Shown piece by piece: positions 4,037 through 24,877 of a stretch of 42,180 nt of DNA. Positions within the stretch are counted from its first letter, which is position 1. Each line of letters begins with the position of its first letter. A program made the position numbers and the translations under genes. Source of the DNA: a virus; the IMG/VR virus record IMGVR_UViG_3300045988_015372, positions 1 through 42,180 of that record, one strand, 5' to 3'. Under the pieces are notes generated by a model. That model searched no databases. It was given only the letters and a program-made list of their open reading frames with translations, and was not told the DNA's origin.

Positions 4037-5338
4037 ATGGCAAGACTGAAACAATATGACGAACAGGCGCTGATCGACCGCAGTCAATACGGCGGGAGCA
4101 CCTTTGACCAGCAGCATTTTACAGACGATGAGCTGCGCGCGGCGGCACAGGCCAGAGAAGCCTATCGCACCGGCCAGACCGACATGAAAAGCGCACATGA
4201 TTTCGTGGAAGGTATCCGCAGCAAGTACGGCTATTCCGGCGGCGGGAACGGCAGCCAGTATAACAAGATCAGCTACACCCAGCAGACCAACCAGTGGAAC
4301 GACACAATCAATGCGCTGTGGGATCAGGTCAACGGTTACGGCCCGTTTCAGGATACGCGGGAAAAGCCGACGTATTCCAACCGGTATGACCAGCAGATCA
4401 ATGACCTCTTGCAGCAGTATGTGAACCGGGGAAAATTCAGCTACGATTACAAAAACGATCCGCTGTATGCAAATTACCGGAAGCAATACCAGCGAGAGGG
4501 CCAGAGGGCCACACAGGACGCGCTTGCGGAAGCTGCGGCGGCGTCCGGCGGGATTCCGTCGAGCTATGCGGCGAGTGCGGCGGCACAGGCACAGAATTAC
4601 TACGCTTCTCAGATTGCCGACAAGATCCCGGAGCTGGAACGGCTGGCCTATCAGAAGTATCTGGACGACGCGAACTTGCAGCAGAGCAAGATCAGCGCGC
4701 TTCAGGGGCAGGAACAGCTGGACTATGCGAAGTACATTGACGCGCTCGGCCAGTACAACACAGACCGGAACTTTGATTACGGCGTGTATTCTGACCGCTA
4801 CAACCAGATTGCGAACAACCTCGGCCTCGCGGCCAACCAGCAGAGCACGCAGTATTCGATGGAGACGGCGGCGCAGGGCGACGCGCTGGATCGTGTGCAG
4901 AACTTCTTAAAGGCCGGCGGAAAGCTGGCCGATCTCGATGCGACCCTGATCGCACGTTCCGGCTTGACACCCGCAGAGCTGAAAACCTACGAGGCGTACT
5001 ACGCGAATCAGCCTTCTGGCGGCACCGGCGGTTCTGGCGGAAGAGGCGGAAGAGGCGGAAGCGACGGCAGCGAAGAAGAAACAACGCGGCAAACCGGCAA
5101 GGGCTATATTGACAACACCTACAACAGAGGCGGCGCGGGCGGCATCCAGTCGAAGACCTATGACCAGCTGAAGCGCGGCATGTATGAGTGGATCGCATTG
5201 GGACGGAAAGACAAGGCGTATGAACTGTTTCAGGGCATTGTCCATCAGCTCAATCTTGGCAATTCGAAGGGCAAAAAGCAGTATAACGAATTGGCGAGCA
5301 TCCTGAACGATGCAGGATTTGGAATTCCGTTGGAATAA
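4037..5338 (+). CDS. Hypothetical virion protein, Q/N/Y-rich with a GGSGGRGGRGG low-complexity segment
   Basis: RBS TAAGGAGG sits 7 nt before ATG 4037. The ORF track start at 3974 lies inside the upstream gene and was rejected. Confidence 0.6.
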   Translation: MARLKQYDEQALIDRSQYGGSTFDQQHFTDDELRAAAQAREAYRTGQTDMKSAHDFVEGIRSKYGYSGGGNGSQYNKISYTQQTNQWNDTINALWDQVNGYGPFQDTREKPTYSNRYDQQINDLLQQYVNRGKFSYDYKNDPLYANYRKQYQREGQRATQDALAEAAAASGGIPSSYAASAAAQAQNYYASQIADKIPELERLAYQKYLDDANLQQSKISALQGQEQLDYAKYIDALGQYNTDRNFDYGVYSDRYNQIANNLGLAANQQSTQYSMETAAQGDALDRVQNFLKAGGKLADLDATLIARSGLTPAELKTYEAYYANQPSGGTGGSGGRGGRGGSDGSEEETTRQTGKGYIDNTYNRGGAGGIQSKTYDQLKRGMYEWIALGRKDKAYELFQGIVHQLNLGNSKGKKQYNELASILNDAGFGIPLE

Positions 5339-5347
5339 GGAGGCACT

Positions 5348-8300
5348 ATGGCAAAGTGGAAACGGAGCGGCGCGGATGCTCTGCGGGAATATGAACAGTC
5401 CAGCAACTATGTCGGAAGCATCGGCGTAACACCACTGAATGAAAGAAGCACGTCTGAGGCCGGAGGAAAGTGGAAGCGGAGCGGGGCTGACGCGCTGCGC
5501 GAATATGAGCAGTCCAGCAGCTTCCCGCAGACCCTTCAGGTGCGGAAATATAACGCGGAAGATCGGAACTATGACCAGTTCGCGGCTGAAAGGTACTCCG
5601 CGCAGGTGAACGCGCAGCGCCGTGACACGAACCGGCACTATCAGGAACAGGTCAACGCAGCGGCACAGGCTTTTGACAATTACCGCCGTTACAGTTCGTC
5701 CGGAGCGGCCAAGAACGCGGCACATCAGAACTATGAAGATGCAAAGTACCGGCAGGAACTCGCCCGGCAGCAGATGAGCGGGAGGCGGCTGACAGAAAGC
5801 GAGAAACATTTTCTGGAGAACCCGCGAAACATTGACCCGGACAGAGCGGCACGGGAAGAAGCGGCGAAGGAGCGTGCCTCCCTGCCGAAGCTGGAGAACG
5901 AAACAGAGGAAATGCGGCGGCAGCAGATCCTGGGCAGGCAGTCCGAAGACCTCCAGAAGCAGATCGACGCGCTGACGCAGCAGGAAGAGGAACGGCGCAA
6001 GAACACCAGCCTGTGGGAGAAGATCGGGCGCGCACTCTCCCCGATCCGCTCGTTCCGGCAGGAAGAGAACGACGCAGAGGATGCTATTTCCAAACTACAG
6101 GAGCGGAAAGCCGAAGTCGACCGGCAGTATCAGATGGACGCGAACCAGTACAAGGTCTATCAGACATATCAGAAATCGGAGCGTCCGGAAGCGTACACAG
6201 CGGAGAATGTCGGAAATTACAAGCAGCGTCTGGCGGCACTGGCGAGCGTCTACGGGACGTGGACAAAGGAGCAGGAGCAGGAGGCGAAGGAAGCCATTGG
6301 AACGCAGAGCGGCGGGACGGGACTTCTGAGTGCAGAGAAAAACGTCTGGGCGTTTGCGCCGTATCAGGAAGCCGTGCGCAAAAACGACACGGAATCTGCC
6401 CGGCAGTGGGAGCAGATCTACAACGCACTCTATACGCGGCTTTACTCCGGACAGGAAGCTGTCACAAGTGGCCTGATGCAGGGCCTTGGATTTGAGGCGC
6501 TTGGAGACGTGCTGCTTCATACCTCCACGGAAATGGCGGACGAGGCGTATGAGAGATGGGCGGAGCAGAAGCAGAACTACGCCTATGCGCAGTCGGAACA
6601 CCCGTATCTTGCGAGCGGCGCGCGCGTTGCCGGTTCTCTGGCGCTGATGAGCGGCGTCGGCAAAGCGGCGGGCGCGGGGTTGGCTGCGACGGGATTGAAG
6701 ACCGGCAGCTTCTGGTTCAACGTGGCGCGCGGATCGCTGACGTTTGCGGGTGTAAACGCGATCCAGAATTCCGGTGCGCTGGCGACCGGGAACATCAGCG
6801 GCGGCGATTATTTGAAGAGCATCGCTGTGAGCGGCGCACAGGGCGCAGCGGGCAACATCGCGGGTGAGCTTGTCGGATCTGGACTTGCTACCGTGCTTCG
6901 CAAGAACGGCCTCATGACGCCGTTCTTCGAGTTCGTGCGTCAGACGGCCAGCAGCATGAGCAATGCGACGGTCAACCAGGCAATCGGATACGCGGCGGCG
7001 GACAAAAAGCCGACCGGGCAGGAGATCGCCGAAGGGCTTGTGACGTCCTTCCTGTTCAGCGCACTCAGCAGCGCGATTTCGACCTATGAGACGACGAACG
7101 CGCAGAAAGCGCGGATGCAGCAAGCCTATAACCAGATCGAGGCCAGCTATCAGGCGATGGCGGCGGGGACGGAGAACATGACGCCGGAGGCAAAGGCCCA
7201 GCGCGTGCAGCTCATTCTACAGCAGACGCAGAACCTCCGCGCGGCGACGGGCGAATATTACATCGCGGGCCAGCAGAAGGCCGTCAACAACCTCAACTCT
7301 GCGCTGGATGCGATTGAGGATTGGGCAAACAACTATCTGAATGGCTATCAGGCGGCAGCCGACGCCATGCAGCCCAAGACCGCGCTTCCGGGCGGCACGA
7401 CCGGACAGATCCCGAGTGCGCCGGCACAGCCTCCGGTCGACCCGAATCTGACGCAGGATGTCGCAAACGGCCTTCAGACCGCGATCACGCAGGGCGTGAT
7501 TCAGGCGGACACGCCGCAGCCCATGACGGGCGGAGACGCAGCGGCGGGCGCGGCACAGTCTGTAAGTCAGAATCTTCAGGCGCGGGGGCTGGACGCAAAA
7601 ACTGCGGATGCACTTGTGAAAGCGGCGACGGAAATGCAACAGGAGGCCGCGTCTGCGCCGTCAGGCTGGCAGAACGCCGCTCCCACGGAAACGGTCGCCC
7701 CGAAGCAGAACGCCGCGCAGACGCCCGCACAGGACGCGCAGGAAAGCACCGCCGTGAACACGAACCCGGCAGAGCACACAAAGGCGGAACAGGCCGTGAT
7801 CGAAGCATACAAGGCCAGTGCAGATGGGCAAATGCGCGGGTTCATCGAGAAGGTGCGCTCCCTGCAAAACAACGACTACAAAAATAAAATCAGCGCGGAC
7901 GTTCACACAGAAACGACACGCGCTGCGGACACCGCCGGAGAGCTGACCGGAACAGATACAAGCGGATTCAAAAATATCATCAAGGGGAACGCGGTACAGC
8001 ACATCGACAGGCGGCACGGTGCAAACGGAAGCGCAGATCATTCAATGGCAAACATTGATGATTTTTCTCGCATTGGGTTTGTACTGGACAACTTTACCGA
8101 TGCGGAGCTTTTACCGTTGAATCGCGTGGATGCGGAGACTGCAAAGCTGAGCCGGGAATGGATGAACAGCGACAACACGCAAGCGCCGCTTGTACGTTTC
8201 TCCATGCCGGTGAACGGTGTGTTCTATGTGGTCGAAGCGGTACCGTCCAGTAAGGCAAAGCGTCTGGCCGTCGTATCGGCGTACATCAGCAGGGAAAACA

Positions 8301-11300
8301 AAGAGAGCACCCTCAAGCAAGTGCTGAACCTGTCTGACACGACCGGCAGCGGTACGCCCGAAACGCCCCTTGCAATATTGGATGCTCCTGAAAAAAGCTT
8401 AGCACAAAACGGCGGAACTGTCAAGCAGACGGACGCGAGCACATTGTCTTCGATGGCGCAGACGCTTGGGAAGAGCGGGCAGAAAGCGATCTTCAAGGCA
8501 TACGACAGCAAGGCGGACACGGCGGAATACGCCGGGGAGTTTGTGAAGGTCTACAATGCGGCACGTGCCGGGAATGACCTTCCCGAGACGAAGACGTTAG
8601 AACCGTGGCAGAAGTACGCGGCGGAAACCGCCGGAAAGAATGACGCTGAAAAGGTTGAATCTATTGCGAAGAGCGAAAAACCGGCGTATACTGAGGACAA
8701 AAACAGCGTGCAATATGTCTCTTCCCTGCTTGAAAGCGTGAACACGGCCAACACGGACAATTACCGCTTCCGGATTCAGGATCGCGGTGACGGACAGTGG
8801 ATCGGGACGATCACGGGAAGGACGGAGACGGCCGGCACTGTTCCCGTGGAAAACGCACGGAAGCTGACATACACAAGTCCTACATATGCTTCGCGGCAGG
8901 AAGCTGTTGAAGACATTCTTGCGGTAGCTGGAAATAACAAACTTTTGACAGGAGGAACGAGCAATGAAATACAGAGCGTTTCTGACAGACAGGGAGTACC
9001 AGAGTCTTCCGTATCCGGGACAGGTGACGGCGGACTACTGGGCGGAGTTTCTGCCGAAGATGTGCAAAAGCCTGAAGGAGGAAGGCGAGCTGCTCCCGCT
9101 GTTGCAGCAGAAGGGGGAACGGCTGGCCGAGATGCAGGAAGACCTGATGAAACAGGGGCTGGCACAGGATCAGGCGTGGGAGTTCGTGAAGGAGGACATT
9201 TACAGCCTGCAACCGGAAGTGGACGAGGACACCGAGGCGTACAAGGAACGTCTCGAAGAGGAACTCCGGTATCAGTGGTTCATGTCACAGAGCGGGGCGG
9301 AGCGGGAGATTCCGTTCGAACAGTATCGGAAGAACCCGGAGAACATCGCACGGGCGAAGGAAATGATGGCGTACTGACGCCGGAAACGGCAAAGAAGCCA
9401 AGCGCAGACCTTTCGGCGACGGTTCAGCGGGAGATCAGGGAGAAGACGGCGGATTCCGTATCTCCGAAGGGCACGAACTACGTCATTCCGGAAGAGGGCC
9501 TGAAGCTGCCGAACGGCGAAAAGGCCCGCTATAAATCCAATGTTGCAGCCATTCAGACGCTTCGTGCGGTGATGAGCGAAAACCGTATGGCGACGCCGGA
9601 GGAACAGGCGGTGCTTGCGCGGTATGTTGGATGGGGCGGAATTCCGAACGCCTTTGACAGCCACAAGGAAGATTGGGCAAAGGAGTACCGGCAACTGAAG
9701 GGATTGCTCAGCGAATCGGAATGGAAAGCCGCGATGCAGTCCACGACGAACGCGCATTTCACGTCTGTGGAAGTGATCCGCGCGATGTATCACGGGCTTG
9801 AATCGCTTGGCTTTACGGGTGGCCGTGTGCTGGAACCGTCGTGCGGCGTCGGCAATTTTGCCGGGGCCATGCCCGCTTCCCTTTTGCCGAATGTGAAAAG
9901 CCTGACGATGGTGGAACTGGATGAAGTGACCGGCAACATTGCAAAGGCGCTTTATCCGAACGCGAAGGTCATGGTTCAGGGATTTGAAACGGCGGTGATC
10001 CCGGACAACTACATGGATCTCGCCATTGGCAATGTGCCGTTCGGGAACTATGCGATCTTCGACAAAGCCTATCCAAAGGCCGTGACAAACTCCATTCACA
10101 ACTATTTCTTCGCAAAGTCCATTGATAAGGTGCGTCCGGGCGGCGTACTGTGCTTTATCACGTCGCGCTATACGATGGATGCAAGAGACAGCTCCGTGCG
10201 CGAGTACATGATGCAGCGGGCCGACCTGCTCGGCGCGATCCGTCTGCCGGACACTGCGTTCAAGGCCAATGCCGGAACGGACGTTGTGACGGATATTCTG
10301 GTGTTTAAGAAGCGCCCGGCCGGAACAGCATACGCCGGAGAGACATTCCGTGACGTGGACTATTATCATCAGGATAAGGGCATTTGGGAGCAGACGAACG
10401 GATATTTCCGGAACCATCCGGAAATGGTGCTCGGCACGGTAGAGAAGTCTGGGACGATGTATCGCGCGAACGGACTGACCGTGAAAGCGAAGCCGGGAAA
10501 CCTCGGGAAGCAGATCGAAAAAGCGTTCTCGCAGATCACCGGACGCATGGACTACACGGCGAATCCGACGCAGGCCGAAATTCAGGCGGAAGTCCGCAAA
10601 GAAATCCGCTCGGCCAAGAGCAAGGCGAAGAACGGAAGTTTTGTTTCTGAGGGCGGAAAGCTGTATCAGAATCAGGACGGCGAGCTGGTGCGGCTGGATC
10701 TGAGCGCAAAACAGGCGGAAGTGCTTCAGAGCGCGATCTCTCTTCGGGATACCGGACGGGAACTGCTGGCCCTTCAATTTGACAACGCCCCGGCGGAGCA
10801 GATCGAGGCAGCGCGGGCAAAACTGAATGAAGTGTACGATAATTTCGTACAGAAAAACGGCCCAATGAACAATCCGGCAAACAAAAAAATCATCCAGCAG
10901 GATGCGGATGCGCCGTTCATCCTTGCGCTGGAAAACTATGACGCGAAAGCCAAGACAGCGGAAAAGGCCGCGATCTTTACGAAGAACACCATTACGCCAC
11001 ATGAGATCGTGAGCCACGTTGACACGGCTGCGGACGGCATTGCGGCGTCGATCAACGAGACGGGCGGCGTGGATATTCCGATGATTGCACGGCTTATGGG
11101 AACGGACGAGAAGGCCGTGGAGCGGCAGCTTGCGGCGCAGGGTCTGGCCTATAAGCAGGCGGACGAGAGCTGGCAGCCGGCGCAGATGTATCTTTCCGGC
11201 AACGTTCGGGCAAAGCTGAAAGAGGCGCGCGGTCTGGCGAACATCGACCCGGCGTATGAGACAAACGTAAAGGCGCTGGAGAAGGTCGTCCCGGCGGATA

Positions 11301-14300
11301 TTCCTGCACAGGATATTTCCGTCCGGCCGGGCGCGACGTGGATTCCACCGCGTGTATATGCTGATTTTGCCGCTGAAATCCTCGGCAGCAGGAATAGCGG
11401 CAGGAGAAGCGCAATCGATGTGACGTACAGCCCGATCACGGGGACATACAAGGTGGACTATGGAGCAAGCGGGAGATATCTTCGCGGAAACTCGGCGGAC
11501 TCCACAGAATATGGCGCAGAGGGAAAGACCTTTGTGCAGATTTTTGAAGCGGCGCTCAACAGCAAGGATCTCAAGGTCTACTATCCGCACGGCAAGGACG
11601 AGAAAGCCGTATTGAATCCAAAGGCGACGATTGCCGTCAAGGAAAAGAAGAACAAGATCCTTTCAAAATTCCAGGAATGGATGTGGAGCGACGAGAACCG
11701 GATCAAAGAATATGGGCCGCTTTACAATGATCTCTTCAACTGTATGGCGATTCCGAATTATGACGGCTCGGAGCTGAAGATCGACGGCCTGTCCGCAGGC
11801 TTTACGCTGCGGGAGCATCAGGCAAATGCGGTGCAGCGGATCATCATGTCCGGCGGCAATACGCTCCTTGCGCATGGAACCGGCGCGGGCAAGACGCTTG
11901 AAATGGCCTCGGCGGCAATGAAGCTGCGGCAGATCGGCGCTGTAAAAAAGCCGATGATCATTGTCCCAAAGAATTTGCTTGGACAGTGGGAGAGGGAGTT
12001 TAGAAGCTACTACCCGGCGGCGAAGCTGCTGGTTCCGGCAGAAAATGACTTCACCCCGGCCAACCGGAAAACCTTCGCGAATAAGGTCGCGACCGGGGAT
12101 TATGATGCGGTCATCATCACATATGAGCATTTTGAACGGATTCCGCTCTCCAAACAAGCGCAGGCGAGGTATTATCAGGAACAGGTCGACCAGATCATTG
12201 CAGCGCAGGAGGAGGCCAAGAAACAGCAGACCGGAAAAAACTTCACGGTGAAGCAGCTGGCGAAAAAGCGTGCAGAGCTGGAAGCGAAGATCAAAGGTCT
12301 CAGTGATGTGGCACGGGACGAGGACAACATTGATTTCGAAAGTCTCGGCGTGGACAGCCTGTTCGTAGACGAGGCGCACAACTTCAAAAACCTGTTCTAT
12401 ACGACGCAGATGTCTGACGTGGCGGATCTTGGAAATAAGAACGGCAGCAAGCGCGCGAGCGACCTTTATATGAAGGTGCGCTATCTGCAAGGGTTGAACG
12501 GCGGACGTGGTGTCGTGTTTGGGACGGCAACGCCTGTTATGAACTCTGTGGTTGAAATGTATGCCATGCAGAGCTATTTGCAGGGCGATCTTCTGAAGCA
12601 GAAGGGCATCAACAGCTTTGACGCATGGGCCAGCGAGTTTGGCGAAGTGGTCGACATTAACAAGATGAAGGCCGGCGGAGACGGTTATGAGACGAAGCAG
12701 TCCATGAGCCGGTATCGGAACCTCGGCGAATTGCAGCAGCTTTTCCGCAGCTTTGCCGATGTTGTGACGCAGGCGCCGGGGTTGAAGCTGCCGAAAGTCA
12801 GAACCGGTGGCCCCATTGTGGTGGAGTGCGACCCTTCCAAGGCACAGACGGAATATCTCAGCGAGATCGGCAAGCGAGCTGACAATATCCGCACAGGCCG
12901 TGTGGACGTGAAGGACGACAACATCCTGAAGGTCTACGGCGACGGGAAAAAAATGAGCTACACGCAGCGCATGATCGACCCGAAGCTCGGCTACGAAGAG
13001 GGCGGCAAGATTCTGAAATGCGTGGACAATGTGCTCAAAGAATACCGGGCCAGCGAAGGGAACCGAGGAACGCAGCTTATTTTCTGTGATCGTGGCGTCC
13101 CTGGCGGGCAGGACGAAAAGAACGGCATTTTCCTTTATCGTGACATCAAAGATCTGCTGGTCAAGGGCGGAATTCCGGAGAATGAGATCGCGTATGCACA
13201 GAGCTACAAGACGGACAACGCGAAATCAAAAATGCAGGAGATGGTCAACGACGGAACGATCCGCGTCCTCATCGGTTCGACGCAGGCGATGGGAACCGGC
13301 CTGAACATTCAGAAACGAGCCGTGGCCATGCATGAGCTGAACGCGCCAGACCGCCCCGGCGACATTGAACAGAACCGGGGGAGAATTGTCCGTCAGGGAA
13401 ACACGAACCCGGAAGTGTCGATCTACACCTACATCACGAAGAAAACCTTTGACAGCCGTCAATGGGACAACCTGAAGCGCAAGGGCGCGTTCATCCATCA
13501 GATCATTGCGGGCGATTACAACGGAAGAACCGCAGACGGCGACGGCGACTTCTCCGCCAGCGCAGCGGAAATCGCGGCGATTGCGTCGGACAACCCACTG
13601 ATTCTGGAACAGAACGAAATCTCGCAGAAAATAAACCGGCTGGAAGCTCTTGCATCTTCGCACATCAAGGAAGTGCAGGAGGCTAAGCGGAAGGTGATGG
13701 AGCTGCCGCAGACCATCGGGCGGTTTGAAACGATCCGCGGCAATTTGAAAGCCGACATTTCTGCACGGCAGGATTCCGGCGGCGATAAGTTCCGCGCAAC
13801 CATTCTTGGACGGAATTACAAGAAGCGTGCAGATGCGGGCGAGGCGATCAATCAGGCGGTTTCCTCGAGAATCGATATGACGGCGGAGGCAAGCAGCGCG
13901 AAAATCGGCGAATTTGCCGGATTCGACGTGTATGCGGACAACCACGGCGGCGCGTATCTGCAAGGCTCCGGCACGTATTCGTTCGCTGTCAACCGGGACA
14001 GCGTTGAAGGCACGGTACGTTCGATGGAAAATGTGCTGAAAACGTTTGAAGGGCGATTGGAGCAGACGGAGCGCAGCTTGTCCGACCGAAAGAACGATCT
14101 TACAAAGTATGAGCAGATTGCAAAGTCTCCTTTTGAACAGCAGAAGGAGCTTGACAATCTCCGCGCCAGAGAAGACGAGATCATGTCGATCCTGAATCCG
14201 AAGGATGAACAGGGCACATTCGTTGCGGACGATGGGGTGGAAAAGCTGGTGGAACGTTCGGCCGGAGACGCCGCAGCGGATCACAGCGCGGAATGGACGG

Positions 14301-17300
14301 CGACGCGCGTCGGAGACGAGAAGCAGACCCCGAAACCCCTGAGTGAGATCATCGCCGGGATCGAGCATAATTTCGGGATCAACATTACGACCGGGCACGC
14401 GCGGGGCAGAGTGCGCGGGCAGTATTCCAAGCTGGACAACGGCATCCGCACGAAGATCACAAACGATCTGCCGACCATCTCTCATGAGCTGGGACACGCG
14501 CTGAACCGCGAATACGGATTTACCGGGAAACTGACCGACGCAATGCGCAGCGAACTGAAAAACGGTCTCGGGGATCTGAAGGACGAATATAAGCAGAGCA
14601 AATGGATTAGCGAAGGACTTGCGGAATTCCTCCGGAAGTATCTGCAAAACTCCGAAACGGCGGCGATTGATTATCCGGAATTCACAAAGCATTTTCTGAA
14701 CAGCCTTTCTCAGCGAGACAGGGCGCTTGTGGAAAACCTCGCAGATGAAGTCAATGCCTATTATTCGCTCGACGCGGACACGGCGCAGAGCGCGATCCGG
14801 TTGAGAGAAGATCGTGTGCCGACGGGCGACACGACCGGCGACAAGCTCAGAGCGGAAGCGAGTGTGCTTTATCAGGCGTGGGTAGACAGCCTGCACGGGA
14901 TCAAGCTGCTCGACGAAGCGACCGGAACGAATACTTATCGGCTGGCGACAAACGCTGCCTATTCTGACGCAATGGCCGGGCAGATCATCACGGGAAATCT
15001 GACAGATGCGAATGGACAATATGTGGGGCCGGGACTGAAAGCGGCACTGCAAGGGATCAACCTGAAGAACAAGGCCGAATACCGGGCGTTTGGCGAGTAT
15101 CTTGTGGTACGGCATGGGCCGGAGCGGCTGGCGGAAGGAATGCGCGTATTTGCAGATGACCGCAAGAACTCCACGGCATTCATGAACCGGCGCGCGGCAG
15201 AGCTGGAGCAGCAATATCCGGCGTTCCACGATGCGGCAGAGCGGCTTTATGTGTTCCAAGACCAGCTCAAGGAAACGTGGCTCGTTGGAACTGGACTGAT
15301 CTCGGAAGAAACCGGCGAGGAATGGAGCAAGCGGTGGAAGCATTACGTTCCGTTCAATCGCGCCATGCCGCAGGGGCAGGGCGGCGCGAAGCGCGGATTT
15401 GCCAACCAGCAGAACCCGATCAAACGCGCCAGAGGCAGCGGCAGAGATCTTGTTCATCCTGTGGACAACATCATTTCCAACATCGTCAAGGTCGTCAATG
15501 CGGGCGTCCGCAACAACGTAATGCGCAGGATCACAGACGAGGCGCAGCGCGTGGGCGCGGATGCAGTATTCCTTGAAAAAATCCCCACGCCGATGCGCGG
15601 GACGCGCGTAAATCTCACGGGCGTGAAGAGTGACCTGATGGATCGGATTACGGAGAAGGGATGGGCGAATGCCAACGATTTTGGGGAAATTGTAGCCGAC
15701 ATTGATGATTACATGATGCAATTCCGGCGCGGGAAAGCGTTCGGAGACGTTGTTACCGTCCTGAAAAACGGCAAGCCGGAGTTCTGGAAGGTCAACGACC
15801 CCCTGCTGCTCCAATCGATCACGGAAATGTCCCCGTCAAAGGTGAATGGGCTTGTCGATGCGATTGGAAAAATGTCGCACTTCATGACCTCCAACATCAC
15901 AGGAGACAATATCATCTGGTCGATCTTCTCCAACCTTCCGCGAGATCTCGGGACGCTGATGGTCTATGCGAAAGAACCGAACCGTTTCAAACTGCTCAAA
16001 GAGATCGGCGCTTCGTATGTCAACAAGCTCAAAGGCGACAGCGCGAACCCGCTTTATCTGGAATACCTCGCAATGGGCGGCGGCAAGGCGAGCTATTACA
16101 GCACCGACCGCGACGTTGCGAAGAAAGCGCGCAAGGAGCTGGCCGGAAAGTTCACGCTCAACCCGCTGGATTGGATCTCGTATCTGGGCGATATGATCGA
16201 ACAGGGGCCGCGCTTCGCTACCTATAAGTGTCTCCGGGAACGCGGCGTTGATCCGCAGACGGCATTTTATGAAGCAATGGATGTGACAACGAATTTCCGG
16301 CGCGGCGGCGCAACGTCCAGACAGGTCAACAAGTTCGTCCCGTTCTTCAATGCCGGCGTGCAGGGCATCGACAAGCACGTCCGGTTCCTGACCGGGCAGG
16401 ATGCACCACCGGAGCAGAGAAAGCGCGTCGTTCGCAACCGCATGATCGCCTATTTTGCCGCTTCAGCTGGGATCGCGGCGCTGTTCTACCTCATCAACAA
16501 CCGTGACGAGGAAAGCAAGAAGGACTATCAGCAACTTTCCACGTACACGAAGAACAGCTATTTTTGCATCCCGATGGGCGATGGGAAATATTTTGTTATC
16601 CCGAAGCCGCGCGACCTTGCGGTTCTCACCTCTGCGATGGAATCCGGATTGGAGCTTGGCGTCGGCGGAAACAAGCACGCCTTTGATGGATTCTGGAGCT
16701 ATGCAGCGGCCAACTATCTGCCGAATGTGGCAGCCGATCTCGCGCAGGGAGATTGGAAAGGGGCACTCGGCGGACTTGGGATCGTCGGCATCGGAACGTC
16801 GATGGTTGCGAACCGCGATTTCCTCGGAAGGCCGATTGAATCCGCCGGCATGCAGTATCTTGAACCGAAAGACCGGTATAATGACCGGACGTCAAAACTG
16901 GCTTACTGGGCCGGGCAGGCGTTCAATGTCTCCCCACAGATGACGGATTATTTCTTCAATAACGTGCTCGGCGGATGGTGGAAGTATCAGAAAGCCCTGT
17001 TCCCGGTTGGAGAAGAAAATCGGGATTTGACGCTTGGCGTGAAGAACACCTACGTCAAGGACAACCAGTATTCGCAGGATCTTGTAAACTGGCTTTACGA
17101 CAAGGCGGAGAAAACGTCGCAGACTTCGAAATCCGACCCGGACAACATTTCCAAGAAGATCACGGCCAAGACGGACAGCAACATGACCACCTTCTATGGG
17201 AACTACAACAAACTCTCGAAGAGCGATACGAAGTCCACGGCGGCGCGCGGGACGCGGCAGCTGGTGCTTGATATGATCCGCGAGTATCAGAAAGCGACGG

Positions 17301-17818
17301 ACAACAAGAGCCAGACCGATGCGGAGAAGGAAGTCTATGCGATCTGCGAGGCGCACGGCGATGTGGACATTCTTCCGGGCGTGATGAATACCAGCATCAA
17401 AGATTCGGATGGCAAGGAATACACGCTGAGCGCGGTGGATTATGTGGAGTTCCAGACGGACTATCTCGGGATCTATTGGGAAAGCGTGTCTCAGACGCTG
17501 GACGGCGTGAAGGGCGACGCGCAGCGATATTCCGTATTGAAATCCGTCAAGGACGCTGCGAAGGAACAGGCGAAGGTGCGGGCGCTCAAACGGATGGGCG
17601 CAAAGACTACCACAGCTTGGGGAGATAAGTATTCCGGCGCAAGCACATACGATGTGGCATACTTCAAGGCCAACGCAGACGCAGACGGGAATGGATCGAT
17701 TTCTCAGGCGGAGGCTGAAGCGCTTCTGCGGAAGATGGATCTGACAAACGCGGAACGCGCGGATCTATGGGCCGCGACAAACAAGGCATGGGCAGAGAAG
17801 AACAATCCATTCCGATAA
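5348..17818 (+). CDS. Giant polyvalent virion protein (4156 codons as a single ORF). Coiled coils, Gly-rich hydrophobic TMP-like segment, PBECR-like nuclease region, N6-adenine MTase, SNF2 helicase, HExxH zincin-like peptidase, C-terminal EF-hand loop
   Basis: RBS AAGGAGG precedes ATG 5348. MTase motifs: LEPSCGVGNFAG (9826-9865) and DLAIGNVPFG (about 10016-10045). Helicase motifs: LAHGTGAGKT (about 11880), LFVDEAHNFKN (12360-12392) and QNRGRIVRQGN (about 13370-13400). HELGH at 14485-14499. EF-hand DADGNGSISQAE at 17678-17713. The frame is not convincingly coding between about 8950 and 9378 (see nested ORF). Confidence 0.6.
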   Translation: MAKWKRSGADALREYEQSSNYVGSIGVTPLNERSTSEAGGKWKRSGADALREYEQSSSFPQTLQVRKYNAEDRNYDQFAAERYSAQVNAQRRDTNRHYQEQVNAAAQAFDNYRRYSSSGAAKNAAHQNYEDAKYRQELARQQMSGRRLTESEKHFLENPRNIDPDRAAREEAAKERASLPKLENETEEMRRQQILGRQSEDLQKQIDALTQQEEERRKNTSLWEKIGRALSPIRSFRQEENDAEDAISKLQERKAEVDRQYQMDANQYKVYQTYQKSERPEAYTAENVGNYKQRLAALASVYGTWTKEQEQEAKEAIGTQSGGTGLLSAEKNVWAFAPYQEAVRKNDTESARQWEQIYNALYTRLYSGQEAVTSGLMQGLGFEALGDVLLHTSTEMADEAYERWAEQKQNYAYAQSEHPYLASGARVAGSLALMSGVGKAAGAGLAATGLKTGSFWFNVARGSLTFAGVNAIQNSGALATGNISGGDYLKSIAVSGAQGAAGNIAGELVGSGLATVLRKNGLMTPFFEFVRQTASSMSNATVNQAIGYAAADKKPTGQEIAEGLVTSFLFSALSSAISTYETTNAQKARMQQAYNQIEASYQAMAAGTENMTPEAKAQRVQLILQQTQNLRAATGEYYIAGQQKAVNNLNSALDAIEDWANNYLNGYQAAADAMQPKTALPGGTTGQIPSAPAQPPVDPNLTQDVANGLQTAITQGVIQADTPQPMTGGDAAAGAAQSVSQNLQARGLDAKTADALVKAATEMQQEAASAPSGWQNAAPTETVAPKQNAAQTPAQDAQESTAVNTNPAEHTKAEQAVIEAYKASADGQMRGFIEKVRSLQNNDYKNKISADVHTETTRAADTAGELTGTDTSGFKNIIKGNAVQHIDRRHGANGSADHSMANIDDFSRIGFVLDNFTDAELLPLNRVDAETAKLSREWMNSDNTQAPLVRFSMPVNGVFYVVEAVPSSKAKRLAVVSAYISRENKESTLKQVLNLSDTTGSGTPETPLAILDAPEKSLAQNGGTVKQTDASTLSSMAQTLGKSGQKAIFKAYDSKADTAEYAGEFVKVYNAARAGNDLPETKTLEPWQKYAAETAGKNDAEKVESIAKSEKPAYTEDKNSVQYVSSLLESVNTANTDNYRFRIQDRGDGQWIGTITGRTETAGTVPVENARKLTYTSPTYASRQEAVEDILAVAGNNKLLTGGTSNEIQSVSDRQGVPESSVSGTGDGGLLGGVSAEDVQKPEGGRRAAPAVAAEGGTAGRDAGRPDETGAGTGSGVGVREGGHLQPATGSGRGHRGVQGTSRRGTPVSVVHVTERGGAGDSVRTVSEEPGEHRTGEGNDGVLTPETAKKPSADLSATVQREIREKTADSVSPKGTNYVIPEEGLKLPNGEKARYKSNVAAIQTLRAVMSENRMATPEEQAVLARYVGWGGIPNAFDSHKEDWAKEYRQLKGLLSESEWKAAMQSTTNAHFTSVEVIRAMYHGLESLGFTGGRVLEPSCGVGNFAGAMPASLLPNVKSLTMVELDEVTGNIAKALYPNAKVMVQGFETAVIPDNYMDLAIGNVPFGNYAIFDKAYPKAVTNSIHNYFFAKSIDKVRPGGVLCFITSRYTMDARDSSVREYMMQRADLLGAIRLPDTAFKANAGTDVVTDILVFKKRPAGTAYAGETFRDVDYYHQDKGIWEQTNGYFRNHPEMVLGTVEKSGTMYRANGLTVKAKPGNLGKQIEKAFSQITGRMDYTANPTQAEIQAEVRKEIRSAKSKAKNGSFVSEGGKLYQNQDGELVRLDLSAKQAEVLQSAISLRDTGRELLALQFDNAPAEQIEAARAKLNEVYDNFVQKNGPMNNPANKKIIQQDADAPFILALENYDAKAKTAEKAAIFTKNTITPHEIVSHVDTAADGIAASINETGGVDIPMIARLMGTDEKAVERQLAAQGLAYKQADESWQPAQMYLSGNVRAKLKEARGLANIDPAYETNVKALEKVVPADIPAQDISVRPGATWIPPRVYADFAAEILGSRNSGRRSAIDVTYSPITGTYKVDYGASGRYLRGNSADSTEYGAEGKTFVQIFEAALNSKDLKVYYPHGKDEKAVLNPKATIAVKEKKNKILSKFQEWMWSDENRIKEYGPLYNDLFNCMAIPNYDGSELKIDGLSAGFTLREHQANAVQRIIMSGGNTLLAHGTGAGKTLEMASAAMKLRQIGAVKKPMIIVPKNLLGQWEREFRSYYPAAKLLVPAENDFTPANRKTFANKVATGDYDAVIITYEHFERIPLSKQAQARYYQEQVDQIIAAQEEAKKQQTGKNFTVKQLAKKRAELEAKIKGLSDVARDEDNIDFESLGVDSLFVDEAHNFKNLFYTTQMSDVADLGNKNGSKRASDLYMKVRYLQGLNGGRGVVFGTATPVMNSVVEMYAMQSYLQGDLLKQKGINSFDAWASEFGEVVDINKMKAGGDGYETKQSMSRYRNLGELQQLFRSFADVVTQAPGLKLPKVRTGGPIVVECDPSKAQTEYLSEIGKRADNIRTGRVDVKDDNILKVYGDGKKMSYTQRMIDPKLGYEEGGKILKCVDNVLKEYRASEGNRGTQLIFCDRGVPGGQDEKNGIFLYRDIKDLLVKGGIPENEIAYAQSYKTDNAKSKMQEMVNDGTIRVLIGSTQAMGTGLNIQKRAVAMHELNAPDRPGDIEQNRGRIVRQGNTNPEVSIYTYITKKTFDSRQWDNLKRKGAFIHQIIAGDYNGRTADGDGDFSASAAEIAAIASDNPLILEQNEISQKINRLEALASSHIKEVQEAKRKVMELPQTIGRFETIRGNLKADISARQDSGGDKFRATILGRNYKKRADAGEAINQAVSSRIDMTAEASSAKIGEFAGFDVYADNHGGAYLQGSGTYSFAVNRDSVEGTVRSMENVLKTFEGRLEQTERSLSDRKNDLTKYEQIAKSPFEQQKELDNLRAREDEIMSILNPKDEQGTFVADDGVEKLVERSAGDAAADHSAEWTATRVGDEKQTPKPLSEIIAGIEHNFGINITTGHARGRVRGQYSKLDNGIRTKITNDLPTISHELGHALNREYGFTGKLTDAMRSELKNGLGDLKDEYKQSKWISEGLAEFLRKYLQNSETAAIDYPEFTKHFLNSLSQRDRALVENLADEVNAYYSLDADTAQSAIRLREDRVPTGDTTGDKLRAEASVLYQAWVDSLHGIKLLDEATGTNTYRLATNAAYSDAMAGQIITGNLTDANGQYVGPGLKAALQGINLKNKAEYRAFGEYLVVRHGPERLAEGMRVFADDRKNSTAFMNRRAAELEQQYPAFHDAAERLYVFQDQLKETWLVGTGLISEETGEEWSKRWKHYVPFNRAMPQGQGGAKRGFANQQNPIKRARGSGRDLVHPVDNIISNIVKVVNAGVRNNVMRRITDEAQRVGADAVFLEKIPTPMRGTRVNLTGVKSDLMDRITEKGWANANDFGEIVADIDDYMMQFRRGKAFGDVVTVLKNGKPEFWKVNDPLLLQSITEMSPSKVNGLVDAIGKMSHFMTSNITGDNIIWSIFSNLPRDLGTLMVYAKEPNRFKLLKEIGASYVNKLKGDSANPLYLEYLAMGGGKASYYSTDRDVAKKARKELAGKFTLNPLDWISYLGDMIEQGPRFATYKCLRERGVDPQTAFYEAMDVTTNFRRGGATSRQVNKFVPFFNAGVQGIDKHVRFLTGQDAPPEQRKRVVRNRMIAYFAASAGIAALFYLINNRDEESKKDYQQLSTYTKNSYFCIPMGDGKYFVIPKPRDLAVLTSAMESGLELGVGGNKHAFDGFWSYAAANYLPNVAADLAQGDWKGALGGLGIVGIGTSMVANRDFLGRPIESAGMQYLEPKDRYNDRTSKLAYWAGQAFNVSPQMTDYFFNNVLGGWWKYQKALFPVGEENRDLTLGVKNTYVKDNQYSQDLVNWLYDKAEKTSQTSKSDPDNISKKITAKTDSNMTTFYGNYNKLSKSDTKSTAARGTRQLVLDMIREYQKATDNKSQTDAEKEVYAICEAHGDVDILPGVMNTSIKDSDGKEYTLSAVDYVEFQTDYLGIYWESVSQTLDGVKGDAQRYSVLKSVKDAAKEQAKVRALKRMGAKTTTAWGDKYSGASTYDVAYFKANADADGNGSISQAEAEALLRKMDLTNAERADLWAATNKAWAEKNNPFR
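8964..9377 (+). CDS. Alternative-frame ORF (137 aa) nested in the linker of the giant gene; acidic helical hypothetical protein
   Basis: In-frame stop TGA at 8946, then GGAGGA RBS and ATG 8964. Third codon positions are GC-rich like real genes here. Across the same span the giant-ORF frame translates to a G/R-rich string with AT-rich third positions. Confidence 0.5.
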   Translation: MKYRAFLTDREYQSLPYPGQVTADYWAEFLPKMCKSLKEEGELLPLLQQKGERLAEMQEDLMKQGLAQDQAWEFVKEDIYSLQPEVDEDTEAYKERLEEELRYQWFMSQSGAEREIPFEQYRKNPENIARAKEMMAY

Positions 17819-17825
17819 GAAAGAA

Positions 17826-17851
17826 TCCGGCGGGAAACCGCCGGATTTTCT
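17826..17851 (+). terminator. Rho-independent terminator after the giant gene
   Basis: Hairpin ccggcgg-gaaa-ccgccgg followed by attttctct. Confidence 0.65.
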
Positions 17852-20788: not shown

Positions 20789-21060
20789 TTCGTTAGCATT
20801 TTCCATTAGCATTTTGTTGTCAAAATCGCTAATGAACTTGCTCTAATCTATTACTGGTTGTCAAAGAAATTGACAGCATAAAACGGAGATATCCATTGAG
20901 AATAAAAGAAAAACCAGCAATCTCAATCGATTGCTGGTTTCCTTTTAGGTGGCAGGGGATGAGGGATTCGAACACTGATATAAAGCAATAAAACCGTTGA
21001 AAAATCAAGCGGTATTTTCTGCGTTAGCATTTTCGTTAGCATTTTTATAAAAATTCGTCA
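20789..21060. other. attP region: core resembling a tRNA 3' end (20947..20975, minus strand GTGTTCGAATCCCTCATCCCCTGCCACC), flanked by direct repeats GTTAGCATTTT (20792, 20805, 21024, 21036) as candidate integrase arm sites
   Basis: AT-rich non-coding stretch adjacent to int. The TTCGAATCC(stem)(acceptor)G-CCA pattern reads like a T-loop through the CCA end of a tRNA. TTAGCATTTT-type repeats occur on both sides of the core. Confidence 0.5.
20912..20948. terminator. Bidirectional rho-independent terminator (aaccagcaatc ... gattgctggtt)
   Basis: 11-bp stem with A-run upstream and T-run downstream. Lies between the convergent + strand gene 20327..20788 and the minus-strand integrase operon. Confidence 0.65.
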
Positions 21061-22057
21061 TCGCATTTGCCGCCTTGATTCGGTCGATTTTTGCAATGTG
21101 TGTATAAATCCCGCGCACAGTCTGGATGTCAGACCACCCGCCGAACTCCATTGTCTGCAAATCGGAGAATCCAAGATGATAAGCGAGAGACGCAAAGCTA
21201 TGGCGAAGTCCATGCGCGCCGACGTTCGGAATCCCGAGAATATTGCAGACGTCTTCCATTGTTCGATATAAGCCGCAAGGGGGACCTTCCCACACTGGGC
21301 CGGATTTCTTTCCGGCCCTTTTTACGGCTGCTTCAAGCTGCGGAATCATGATCGGAATGACACGCTCACTCTCGACAGTCTTGTTTACATCGCGGGAGAC
21401 AATTTTATTATCCTTGTCCTGTACGGCGGCTCCGTGGACTGTGATAGTCTTATTCTTCAAGTCAATATCTGAATAGTCAAGCCCCATGATCTCCGAACGG
21501 CGGAGCGAATGGAGAGCAAGAAGGGCAGGAATTTCGTATTTGCGTCCTTCCAGCAGCGGAATGACTTTCAGAATTTCTTCCGGCTGCAAGAACGGGCGCT
21601 CTTTGGATTTCTTTTTCTGCTTGGGAAGTGTGACGTCCGGTTCTGCTGCACCGGAAGCGCGTAGGCAGGAGCACAGGAAACTCCAAGAGTTCTTTGCAGT
21701 CTTATAAGAATATTTCTGGTATGTAGCATCTACAACGGACTGCCAGTTTATATCAGACGGCTTTTTCTCGAGAATGTCGTTGAATCTGTGTCGCTGGATG
21801 ATGTCATAGCCGCGAATCGTCGAAGGGGACGTATCGCCCGGCAAGGAATCAACATAATCTTTCATGATCTGCTTGATGGTATTCTTTGATTTCGGCGCTA
21901 TGACGCGCGTCTCCGCCCGGTGTTCGGCTTTTATGAGCTGGGCTTGACGGATACACTCTTTCTTTGTTGAGGCGGACACGGGGACGCTGACGCCGTTCAG
22001 ACGCATTTGGATGAACCATGTGCCGCTGGGAAGCTTGCGCGGTTCCGGGACTTTCAT
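21005..22057 (-). CDS. int: Tyrosine integrase (phage integrase family)
   Basis: C-terminal catalytic region GAHGLRHSFASLAYHLGFSDLQTMEFGGWSDIQTVRGIYTHI carries the R...HxxR...Y signature. Lies next to the attP-like region. Confidence 0.85.
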   Translation of the reverse strand: MKVPEPRKLPSGTWFIQMRLNGVSVPVSASTKKECIRQAQLIKAEHRAETRVIAPKSKNTIKQIMKDYVDSLPGDTSPSTIRGYDIIQRHRFNDILEKKPSDINWQSVVDATYQKYSYKTAKNSWSFLCSCLRASGAAEPDVTLPKQKKKSKERPFLQPEEILKVIPLLEGRKYEIPALLALHSLRRSEIMGLDYSDIDLKNKTITVHGAAVQDKDNKIVSRDVNKTVESERVIPIMIPQLEAAVKRAGKKSGPVWEGPPCGLYRTMEDVCNILGIPNVGAHGLRHSFASLAYHLGFSDLQTMEFGGWSDIQTVRGIYTHIAKIDRIKAANAMTNFYKNANENANAENTA

Positions 22058-22065
22058 TTTCTCAC

Positions 22066-22467
22066 CTAGATTCTGATTGGTATTTTCACAATGCTTTGCA
22101 GATGGTCGCGCACCCAGCCGATATTAGGACTGAGCAGATCGACGAGCAGGAGTATCCCGGCCAGAAAGATAATGCCGAGCAGCGCGGCGATGATCTTTCG
22201 CTTTAACTTCATGGATTGCTGGCAGAACGCGACCGTTTGACGTAGGTGCTTAATTTCCTGCTGTGCGTCGTGAAGCTCCTGCGGGATATCAGATTCCTGT
22301 GGAACATCATCCGGATGGATGTCAAAAAAGCGGTCGAGCGAGATATGCAGGAGGCGACAGACAGGGCCTACAGTGTCGATTCCGGGATTTAATATTTCCC
22401 CACGCATGAATTGACCAATGTTTTTCAGAGACTTTCCGGAGGCGTTAGCCAAATCTTGATAGGTCAT
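22066..22467 (-). CDS. Membrane-anchored XRE-family HTH regulator (134 aa; N-terminal HTH, C-terminal TM helix)
   Basis: Start taken at MTYQDLANASGKSL (ATG 22467, RBS AAGGAAAG), not at the upstream Met of the ORF track. HTH segment LANASGKSLKNIGQFMRGE; TM segment IIAALLGIIFLAGILLLVDLL. Confidence 0.6.
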   Translation of the reverse strand: MTYQDLANASGKSLKNIGQFMRGEILNPGIDTVGPVCRLLHISLDRFFDIHPDDVPQESDIPQELHDAQQEIKHLRQTVAFCQQSMKLKRKIIAALLGIIFLAGILLLVDLLSPNIGWVRDHLQSIVKIPIRI

Positions 22468-22818
22468 GTTCGGATAGCGGCTTTCCTTCTTGTTTCGACA
22501 AATTTCAGACAAATCTTGCTTCAAAAAACGACTTCCTTTCAAAAAAAGCACTTCTATGGGAACAAAAAAGGACCTTACGGTTATCGACAAATCACCTTTC
22601 CGAGGTGTAATCTGTACTTGCAAGCAAGCTCCCACTCGCTTGCGGCAAGCCGAAGCCCCGCCGCCGGGGAGATTCGACGGCGGGGTGATTCACAGTTAAG
22701 AAATCCGACCGTAGAAAAAATAGCCGCGATTTTGTATAGGCTGATGATTGATATATTGAAACGAATGTTTTAGAATGACGGTATGCACAACAGAAGCGGA
22801 GAGAGGAAGGAACGGAAG

Positions 22819-22938
22819 ATGGATAGAGAAGAATTGATCGATCACATTAAATCTGGACTGGAAGAACTGAGCGCGGCGGAACTCATCGAGGTTTATTCCT
22901 GCTGCGTATTACATCATTACCTCGTCTCCCACCAATAG
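22819..22938 (+). CDS. 39-aa ORF with a strong RBS (possible small gene or 5' remnant of a decayed gene)
   Basis: RBS GAGAGGAAGGAACGGAAG precedes ATG 22819. The product MDREELIDHIKSGLEELSAAELIEVYS reads like a genuine N-terminus. Overlaps the 3' end of the minus-strand gene by 22 nt. Confidence 0.25.
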   Translation: MDREELIDHIKSGLEELSAAELIEVYSCCVLHHYLVSHQ

Positions 22939-23936
22939 TGCTCACTTGTGCGTATATCCGCGCGAATGATTTCATCTAAGCTACTGTATTTACTCGTGAA
23001 ATCCATATACGCATAATACCATGTTATATCAAAATGCGGGTTGCAAACCCTGCACGGGCGCATGTGATACTTTTCAACAGTTGCAGCATTTACCGGATGT
23101 GCGACGTTTGCATATCGGCATCCGGAAGAATGATAGATATTTTGGTTGGATGAATAAAACGTGTATATGTCATAAATGGTAGAGTGCGGCAAACCATCCT
23201 CTCCAACATAACACCCGTTGGGAATTCCGGTAGCACGGCCAATGGCTGTGAAATATTCCACACGGTGCTCTCGCTGAAATTTGCGTGTACGAACGGTTAA
23301 ATCTGTAATGTAGGTTTTAAGATAATTCGTGCAAATCTGAACAAGCCCGTCGTAGAGGCGTTTCCTGCCACATATCGCATCGTACTGTGCACGAAGTTCT
23401 TCACACATTGCAGACCGCGCAAGGCGTAAAGAATCATATTCTTCCTTATTTTGATCGGTCGGAAGAATAATATTTAGATCTCTCATGCACTGATTAAGTG
23501 TTGCGAGCCGCTCTTTCTTCCGGCGGAATGGATTTGGAATTTTGGAAATGACAAAGTCTATTCCATCTTGGACAAAAGGAATCTTGGTAAACGGGATAAG
23601 AATGATAGCGAGTGACATCATAATCACCCAAACCGGAATCTTCGGTTCGTTTTTTTCTGACGCTGGTGTAGAAGATGCGGCGGACGCATTCGCGCTCTTA
23701 GATGAAGAAGTCCCAGATCTGGCTCCTGTTTGATCGTCGAAATTATATGGGCAGTCGGCTTTGCCGTCGCCGTCTAAATCAGTGTGCTGATGTGCTCTAT
23801 ATCCGTGATGATAATGATATTCTCCGGTTGCGCTATCATAATGTCCGCCGCGACCGTCTGTGCGACCCGGATGTGCGGAGGCAACGGACAGTAATAAAAG
23901 TGCCATGATCATGCAAAGAGAAAATTTCTTTATCAT
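22917..23936 (-). CDS. Transmembrane protein: signal peptide, extracellular His-rich YHYHHGY plus Excalibur-like Ca-binding motif (DLDGDGKADC), one TM helix, Cys-rich cytoplasmic domain
   Basis: Hydrophobic N-terminus MIMALLLLSVASA. DxDGDG..C motif. Second hydrophobic helix IPVWVIMMSLAIILIPF. C-terminal CxxC pair. AT-rich codon usage relative to the rest of the genome. Confidence 0.6.
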   Translation of the reverse strand: MIKKFSLCMIMALLLLSVASAHPGRTDGRGGHYDSATGEYHYHHGYRAHQHTDLDGDGKADCPYNFDDQTGARSGTSSSKSANASAASSTPASEKNEPKIPVWVIMMSLAIILIPFTKIPFVQDGIDFVISKIPNPFRRKKERLATLNQCMRDLNIILPTDQNKEEYDSLRLARSAMCEELRAQYDAICGRKRLYDGLVQICTNYLKTYITDLTVRTRKFQREHRVEYFTAIGRATGIPNGCYVGEDGLPHSTIYDIYTFYSSNQNIYHSSGCRYANVAHPVNAATVEKYHMRPCRVCNPHFDITWYYAYMDFTSKYSSLDEIIRADIRTSEHYWWETR

Positions 23937-23987
23937 ATATCATCCACCCGAAACAACTGTAACATGAGACGTAGAAAGGAACCAGAA

Positions 23988-24128
23988 ATGAAAGAGCAAG
24001 AAGCGAGAAAAATAATTGCAAAACTTACATACGAAGAAAAAGTGCGGCTCAACGAGATGCTAAAATCCCTTGAACAAATGCGTCAACCTTTGCAGCCTCT
24101 TCCGGCGTCAAGAGCGCGAGACGTCTGA
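23988..24128 (+). CDS. 46-aa ORF antisense to the 3' end of the repressor gene, followed by an intrinsic terminator (candidate antisense transcription unit)
   Basis: RBS GAAAGGAACCAGAA precedes ATG 23988. Stop at 24126-24128. A strong + strand terminator lies 21 nt downstream, inside the cI coding region. Confidence 0.3.
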   Translation: MKEQEARKIIAKLTYEEKVRLNEMLKSLEQMRQPLQPLPASRARDV

Positions 24129-24863: not shown

Positions 24864-24877
24864 AGGAGGAATGAGAA

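Follow-up and report, generated by a model that had tools for sequence, protein, structure and literature searches.

A probable polyvalent protein of 4,156 residues with a DarB-type methyltransferase-helicase core in a phage of gut Oscillospiraceae

The IMG/VR virus record IMGVR_UViG_3300045988_015372 (42,180 nucleotides (nt), here called the window) contains one gene, at positions 5348-17818 of the plus strand, that takes up 29.6% of the phage genome. This giant gene starts with ATG, runs for 12,471 nt and is translated without a stop into a protein of 4,156 amino acids (aa) and 455 kDa. Our analysis indicates that it probably encodes a phage polyvalent protein, one that is made late, packed in the capsid and ejected along with the DNA into the host cell. 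We favour this reading because the protein carries an LPD38 domain and a conserved zincin, is homologous to P1 DarB and colinear with VvAW1 gp01, is encoded in a late operon and has virion-associated homologues. An original prediction, made from the nucleotide sequence before any database search, had proposed the polyvalent concept and had named domain searches as a test that could refute it. In these searches the methyltransferase (MTase), SNF2 and zincin assignments all held. The concept is likewise supported by LPD38, the DarB homology, the late-operon position and the virion-associated homologues, from which we infer packaging of the giant protein. The motifs listed in that prediction are all present, at the expected positions or at most 2 nt away. 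The main features of the gene are the following.

5348-17818, plus strand: giant gene, probable polyvalent protein, last gene of the late structural operon
6365-7351, plus strand: conserved N-terminal module (N-module, aa 340-668), which includes Gly/Ala/Ser-rich hydrophobic segments at aa 370-582
7737-8460, plus strand: PBECR3 cassette, predicted metal-independent RNase (Pfam match at aa 863-986)
9518-10330, plus strand: DarB-type N6-adenine DNA methyltransferase (aa 1391-1661)
11639-13516, plus strand: SNF2-family helicase/translocase (aa 2098-2723)
13625-14254, plus strand: charged helical, coiled-coil-like spacer with weak Tropomyosin matches (aa 2760-2969)
14291-17815, plus strand: conserved C-terminal module (C-module, aa 2982-4156) of zincin, all-alpha region, LPD38 and tail
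14483-14497, plus strand: HELGH zinc-binding motif (aa 3046-3050)
14612-14629, plus strand: EGLAEF, candidate third zinc ligand (aa 3089-3094)
16436-16504, plus strand: the only transmembrane-grade hydrophobic helix, directly before LPD38 (aa 3697-3719)
16520-17002, plus strand: LPD38 domain (aa 3725-3885)
17678-17713, plus strand: single EF-hand-like loop DADGNGSISQAE (aa 4111-4122)
17822-17849, plus strand: intrinsic terminator hairpin with a 12-bp stem and a T run, 4 nt past the stop codon of the giant gene

The central part of the protein (aa 1179-3007) matches the PHROGs family phrog_10089, 'DarB-like antirestriction', with E=0 and 1500 bits, and a weak match to the same family is also found in the LPD38 region. 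Three colinear segments align with P1 DarB in BLASTP, namely the MTase (aa 1391-1661, 3e-22), the SNF2 N-lobe (aa 2098-2474, 4e-27) and the helicase-C region (aa 2635-2723, 5e-9). The MTase has motif I as LEPSCGVGNF at aa 1495 and motif IV as NVPF (GNVPFG) at aa 1562, and the patterns LEPSxGxGxF and GNVPFG are common to the giant protein and P1 DarB. The SNF2 part has intact helicase motifs I, II, III and VI, as GAGKT (aa 2179), DEAH (2341), TATP (2393) and QNRGRIVRQG (QxxGRxxRxG, 2675). The Pfam SNF2-rel_dom profile scores 57 bits against a cut-off of 24.9, ResIII is also above its cut-off, and a search of PDB sequences with the whole protein matched only SNF2 remodellers. The N6-adenine MTase (BLASTP to P1 DarB, phrog_10089, motifs I and IV), the SNF2 helicase with its DEAH box (Pfam, BLASTP to P1 DarB, intact motifs) and their joint P1 DarB architecture (three colinear segments, phrog_10089) are thus borne out as originally proposed. 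P1 DarB (2,255 aa), with its homologous domains in the same order, is packed via an N-terminal 30-aa signal and gives DNA protection from type I restriction; it is believed to enter the cell (PMC9024508). In contrast to the giant protein, it has no N-module, PBECR3, zincin or LPD38, and P1 is a myovirus.

The likeness extends further in gp01 of VvAW1 (3,640 aa), a 38.7-kb Vibrio podophage. A single alignment of about 2,660 residues at 30% identity joins aa 1231-3890 to gp01 residues 742-3489, so that the core from methylase to LPD38 is colinear in the two proteins. The same order of MTase, SNF2, coiled coil, zincin and LPD38 is found in the other phrog_10089 giants, which comprise Bcep22 gp75, JC1 gp69 and those of PEp14, Parlo and Atu_ph08 besides gp01. 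These podovirus giants likewise close the morphogenesis module, ahead of lysis, and take up 22-30% of the genome; the VvAW1 gene (28%) lies directly after the DNA-ejection genes. JC1 gp69 was shown to be virion-associated by mass spectrometry, with 51 unique peptides (PMC9144972). The podoviruses infect Gram-negative hosts, whereas the host of the window phage belongs to the Clostridia, and the giant protein differs from their giants in its N-terminal module and its PBECR3 cassette. The N-terminal 1,180 aa have no match in any deposited phage. To call such a protein unusual for a 42-kb phage, as was done at first, was an overstatement, given the colinear homologue in the smaller VvAW1 genome and the C-module in Vibrio and Shewanella phages of about 36-38 kb.

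The C-module opens with the zincin region. Residues H3046, E3047, H3050, E3089 and E3093 are nearly invariant across 44 homologues (HExxH...EGxAEF), and the chance expectation of HExxH in a protein of such composition is 0.034. This is the sequence pattern of a working gluzincin, a predicted peptidase, and it upholds the earlier HExxH assignment, whose coordinates were 2 nt off. The region is modelled by AF2 with a predicted local confidence (pLDDT) of about 72-92; Foldseek gave weak matches only, to ImmA/IrrE-type and PPEP-1 zincins (E 1-8), and the Pfam Peptidase_M9 score is also weak (E=0.043). When the C-module profile was compared with P1 DdrB in hhalign, the alignment was confined to the 15-residue HELGHHL motif (15% probability). 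LPD38, a phage-only domain defined in polyvalent proteins (PMC5512222), scores 91.8-96.2 bits against a cut-off of 27. The C-module as a whole is modelled as nearly all helical (pLDDT 78.6), and its profile found nothing meaningful among PDB sequences. The claim that the protein ends in a canonical EF-hand holds in part. The loop DADGNGSISQAE does fit D-x-[DNS]-x-[DNS]-G-x-[ILV]-x3-[DE], a pattern met by chance in 1.4% of shuffles (0.014 matches expected), but the EF-hand Pfam profiles are not significant (E=0.15-0.19, against 25-bit cut-offs), the loop is single rather than paired, and most homologues have it in degenerate form, with a canonical or nearly canonical version in few. The tail of about 60 aa around it, ending KNNPF/W, is better conserved than the loop.

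Clostridia proteins contain the C-module as a recurring unit with 50-60% identity, and their N-terminal parts carry ADP-ribosyltransferase (ART), Zeta toxin, RelA/SpoT, PBECR3 or MuF_C; in relatives it stands alone or with other N-terminal enzymes. In an Oscillibacter prophage the locus is split into a 756-aa protein with pieces of the N-region and a 1,390-aa LPD38 protein, followed immediately by holin and endolysin, and it is without methylase and helicase. Used as a tblastn query, the C-module found 351 deposited phages, among them 36-38-kb Vibrio, Shewanella and Thalassomonas podophages and Stx-converting, Bacillus megaterium and Bcep22-like phages. Outside such settings, a 330-kb contig (L008:10001-14887) encodes P0048, a 1,628-aa LPD38-module protein of 31% identity, among genes for SLH-domain cell-wall proteins and with no phage genes within 10 kb; it may have been domesticated or be a remnant.

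The PBECR3 cassette lies between the N-module and the DarB-type core. The His-containing, PBECR-like region noticed earlier corresponds to a Pfam PBECR3 (PF18812) match at aa 863-986 (E=8e-7; 29.4 bits, where the cut-off is 30). PF18812 is present in most homologues of this segment, and these conserve HIxxRHG and YYVVEAVP...VVSAY. The AF2 model (pLDDT 83.8) has helices followed by a three-stranded antiparallel sheet, for which Foldseek returned RelE and HigB folds only, weakly and below threshold.

Taken together, the chain combines at least two unrelated activities, as predicted from its domains (MTase, SNF2 ATPase, zincin and PBECR3), with an LPD domain, LPD38, and with a late, virion-type gene setting between the fibre and internal-virion-protein genes and the lysis cassette; these are the marks of a polyvalent protein. 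In the class described by Iyer et al. in 2017 (PMC5512222), for example Acetonema longum WP_004096050, one chain joins SNF2, adenine MTase, zincin MPTase, PBECR and LPDs, the genes stand beside virion genes and the zincin is a hub domain, all as here. The giant protein differs from that class in an N-module unmatched in Pfam and PHROGs and in a domain order that is a new combination. It also shares LPD38 and a metallopeptidase with gp47 of the Stx phage phi24B (2,811 aa; LPD5, LPD1, LPD38 and metallopeptidase), which is abundant in virions by proteomics, invisible in cryo-EM and a proposed ejection protein (bioRxiv 10.64898/2026.04.10.717836); no MTase-helicase dyad is reported for gp47, and phi24B is an E. 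coli podovirus. By analogy, the closest functional template appears to be the virion RNA polymerase of coliphage N4, gp50, which has an N-terminal injection region, a central enzyme and a C-terminal part of about 1,400 aa with a zincin for encapsidation (PMC5512222). Compared by description only, this giant packaged protein follows the same tripartite logic, with an RNA polymerase rather than a methylase-helicase as the central enzyme.

The setting of the gene is that of a late virion gene. A ribosome-binding site, AAGGAGG, lies 5 nt upstream of the giant gene, 9 nt separate it from the preceding gene, and the order of the module is terS, terL, portal, major capsid protein, collagen-like fibre, XhlA-like, Gp58-like, phrog_511 'internal virion protein', a 433-aa gene, the giant gene, holin and amidase endolysin; integrase and repressor follow downstream on the opposite strand. 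A stop-free frame of 4156 codons between the structural and lysis genes, as originally described, is confirmed by the listing of open reading frames (ORFs), the translation, the ribosome-binding site and the terminator. The frame is not an assembly artefact, because the identical 4,156-aa protein is recorded on two contigs (one of them contig k119_86414, 42,462 bp, of ENA assembly ERZ27261383) and a cluster representative of 4,002 aa agrees with it at 96% identity across the N-module query and also has local BLAST matches to all the other modules. An assembly chimera is likewise ruled out by the two identical copies and by relatives that are 96-99% identical. The first and last 80 nt or so of the window encode the same collagen-like Gly-X-Y stretch; its ends therefore overlap inside the fibre gene, and the window is an essentially complete circular genome of about 42 kb. 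The host is predicted to be a member of the Oscillospiraceae (Clostridia), because relatives are carried by metagenome-assembled genomes of this family and by a Neglectibacter isolate. A megablast search with the giant gene found no match in phage and plasmid collections.

Two natural variants show how the locus changes. The phages of loci L005 and L006 are 96-99% identical to the window phage in the flanking structural and lysis genes and sharply different at the giant gene. L005 is without exactly the 240-aa PBECR3 cassette (window positions 7737-8460). Its giant gene also has a 1-nt frameshift near aa 734 (L005:12154-12214, corresponding to about 7530-7560 in the window), which leaves ORFs of 737 aa and at least 1,259 aa; it may stem from an indel introduced in assembly, mark a pseudogene or be a real split. 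L006 retains aa 181-800 and aa 1026-1101, and the rest, more than 3,000 aa, is replaced by unrelated proteins of 2,049 and 575 aa (L006:10001-17965), which have no Pfam match beyond the shared N-module. Since near-identical phages swap whole cassettes, the locus is a hypervariable cargo site with sharp breakpoints. In relatives the N- or C-module is joined to ART, Zeta toxin, RelA/SpoT, PBECR5, LPD23, LPD3 or MuF_C. Because L006 is without methylase, helicase and LPD38, the recognised enzymes are evidently not needed for virion assembly.

The N-module, aa 340-668, has no relative in Pfam, PHROGs or PDB, its profile found nothing meaningful in PDB, and tblastn with aa 1-1178 gave no match among deposited phages. 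G, A and S make up 46% of aa 401-500, and five moderately hydrophobic segments lie within aa 370-582. With aa 181-800 as the query, HMMER was run exhaustively against 1.84 billion representatives and retrieved 88 clusters, 63 of them below 1e-10, mostly proteins of 2,000-4,500 aa in which the module always occupies about residues 130-750. Local BLAST of the giant protein against these clusters found the LPD38 module in 15, the PBECR cassette in 8 and the methylase in 4; most have only the N-module in common with it. Three other members of the family carry PBECR5, LPD23 or LPD3. The N-module is a genuine domain and not low complexity, because motifs such as GLMTPFxEFVRQ and YIAGQQ contain positions that do not vary across its alignment. 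On these sequence comparisons, the most fitting description is that of an N-terminal handle shared by polyvalent proteins of Oscillospiraceae phages, which form a combinatorial family.

The extreme N-terminus begins with a doubled peptide, and the gene directly upstream (433 aa, 4037-5338) ends in a domain that co-varies with it.

5078-5335, plus strand: C-terminal domain (about 86 aa) encoded by the upstream gene, candidate docking partner
5354-5404, plus strand: N-terminal peptide KWKRSGADALREYEQSS, copy 1 (aa 3-19), candidate capsid-targeting or docking label
5468-5518, plus strand: N-terminal peptide KWKRSGADALREYEQSS, copy 2 (aa 41-57)

The 17-aa duplication, already noticed in the original prediction, is found exactly at these residues, and the DNA of the two copies is 86% identical, with all 8 differences in 56 positions synonymous. 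The same doubled peptide starts another polyvalent protein, P0109, which bears MuF_C. Among the family members P0141-P0228 with intact N-termini (n=61), a doubled 10-mer is found within the first 100 residues of 30 proteins, where about 0.6 would be expected (p<=0.01 per protein against shuffles). Copy 1 usually begins at residues 1-8, with copy 2 20-45 residues further. The peptides are lineage-specific and 10-17 aa long, for example TARERIENYR, GQDLLDQYLQ, MTRDEFLARR, DWWTEWKKKN and KKITVEEYRK. The pattern would fit an N-terminal capsid-targeting signal such as that of P1 DarB (PMC9024508).

Comparison of nine loci gave three recurrent pairings of upstream domain and peptide type, and one singleton. 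The correspondence is seen between lineages and also inside a single one. Domain type A goes with G-x-D-x-L-x-x-Y-x-Q peptides in the window, L005, L020 and L023, and it is 87% identical in L020 although the L020 portal is only 46% identical. Type B goes with V(T/K)IT(K/Q) peptides in L006 and in L003, which is distant; in L006, 99% identical to the window in other respects, both elements are swapped. Type C is paired with TARERIENYR. In L024, the singleton, MTRDEFLARR is preceded by a shorter upstream protein whose similarity to the others is below detection. As a tentative proposal, the doubled peptide and the upstream domain might form a cognate, exchangeable docking pair that loads any polyvalent cargo into the capsid. 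The co-variation can also be explained without an interaction, because the two elements are only 9-12 nt apart and could be transferred jointly in one recombination event.

If the giant protein acts as a polyvalent protein, its course could be as follows. The doubled peptide, possibly docked on the C-terminal domain of the upstream protein, would direct it into the procapsid, and upon infection it would exit through the portal and tail. The Gly-rich hydrophobic N-module, together with the hydrophobic helix near LPD38, may help protein and DNA to cross the envelope. In the cytoplasm the methylase-translocase dyad would track along the incoming phage DNA and shield it in cis from type I restriction, as P1 DarB does. 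The predicted PBECR3 RNase would attack host or defence RNAs, and the zincin may cut the polyprotein into working pieces. We infer packaging, ejection, protection in cis, RNA cleavage and self-processing by analogy with the systems described above.

Several observations weigh against this reading. Virion presence has been shown for homologues, and for the giant protein itself virion presence, ejection, methylation and cleavage are predictions from sequence. The window phage has no cultured relative from which its morphology could be read. The other structural proteins of the window have no BLAST similarity to those of VvAW1, and the idea that the whole virion module is related to that of VvAW1 was rejected for this reason. 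P1 loading requires DarA, Hdf, DdrA, DdrB and Ulx, none of which is recognised at the giant-gene locus; PHROG scans of the neighbouring proteins, with no dedicated search made, found no accessory Dar proteins, which are likewise reported absent in Bcep22-like phages (PMC9144972). The PBECR3 score is slightly below its cut-off, and structure searches with the C-module and PBECR models gave no significant match. Finally, L006 is a close relative entirely without methylase, helicase and LPD38.

Three other accounts were considered. The first is a mainly structural ejection or conduit 'pilot' protein like T7 gp15/gp16 or P22 gp7/16/20, with the enzymes as dispensable passengers of little counter-defence role. 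The N-module as the one part conserved family-wide, its retention in L006 without all recognised enzymes, the hydrophobic glycine-rich segments and the conduit proposed for phi24B gp47 (bioRxiv 10.64898/2026.04.10.717836) all fit this account. We nevertheless consider it unlikely, as the catalytic motifs of MTase, helicase, zincin and PBECR3 are intact and conserved, which argues for selection on enzymatic activity. It also overlaps the polyvalent reading and does not exclude it.

The second account is a tape-measure protein of a long-tailed phage that has acquired enzymes, with the Gly-rich and coiled-coil regions setting tail length. The original prediction had called the Gly-rich hydrophobic stretch tape-measure-like; the stretch exists, but its comparison with tape measures has no support from homology. 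The gene is late in the structural module and directly before lysis, the protein has long charged helical regions besides that stretch, and a long tail would be conceivable in a phage without a cultured relative. On the other hand, neither the giant protein nor its segments nor three further family members match a tape-measure family in Pfam or PHROGs. No tail tube, sheath or chaperone genes were recognised among the neighbours, which match the 'internal virion protein' and 'tail needle' families of PHROGs, and the characterised homologues belong to short-tailed phages. In addition, phages that are 96-99% identical differ by a 240-aa cassette or by the replacement of more than 3,000 aa with 2,049 + 575 aa, and length variation on the scale of cassettes argues against a tape-measure role. 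We rejected this account as very improbable on the lack of family matches and the variable length. The third, a methylase-helicase of the BREX, DISARM or type I/III restriction-modification kind, expressed in the lysogen for host defence or superinfection exclusion and absent from the virion, is least credible of all: the phage is temperate and has an integrase, and there are NCBIfam matches to DISARM DrmD, a MADS methyltransferase and a Dnd restriction enzyme, but these are weak (26-27 bits against cut-offs of 600-720), the gene is co-oriented with the late operon and far from the lysogeny module, a promoter scan inside it found sites no more frequent than chance, and its best homologues are virion proteins.

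The polyvalent class, described in 2017, and the likely role of its members are already known, and the family has proteomic support. Giant injected polyvalent proteins are nevertheless among the least understood phage weapons, with data nearly all from Gram-negative hosts, and the locus provides a complete example from a human-gut Oscillospiraceae phage. Its natural near-isogenic variants differ in the presence of the RNase cassette and of the whole methylase-helicase-LPD38 block, and they mark module boundaries and dispensable parts. Further interest comes from the Gram-positive gut host, the unannotated N-module family and the doubled address peptide with its co-varying neighbour domain. The N-module and the doubled label with its co-varying neighbour offer handles on two questions, namely how a 455-kDa protein is addressed to the capsid and passes through the tail, and whether engineered proteins might be delivered by means of such labels. 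If the docking pair is real, the locus would amount to plug-and-play delivery of proteins, with an N-terminal translocation module not described before.

Other features of the window concern the remaining genome. One tail-fibre gene of about 975 aa spans the window ends (40362-42180 joined to 1-1144). An XhlA-like 'hemolysin' gene (phrog_937, 1230-1535) is found in the structural module between the fibre and Gp58-like genes, outside the lysis cassette. A tRNA search found none. Antisense ORFs of 772 aa (9272-11590, minus strand) and 862 aa (13226-15814, minus strand) overlap the giant gene, and both are probably shadow ORFs of its GC-rich coding strand. The lysogeny module at 21000-25000 has a GC content of 0.45-0.48, against 0.55-0.61 elsewhere in the genome, and includes an integrase and a repressor-like gene.

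21005-22057, minus strand: integrase
22066-22635, minus strand: repressor-like gene

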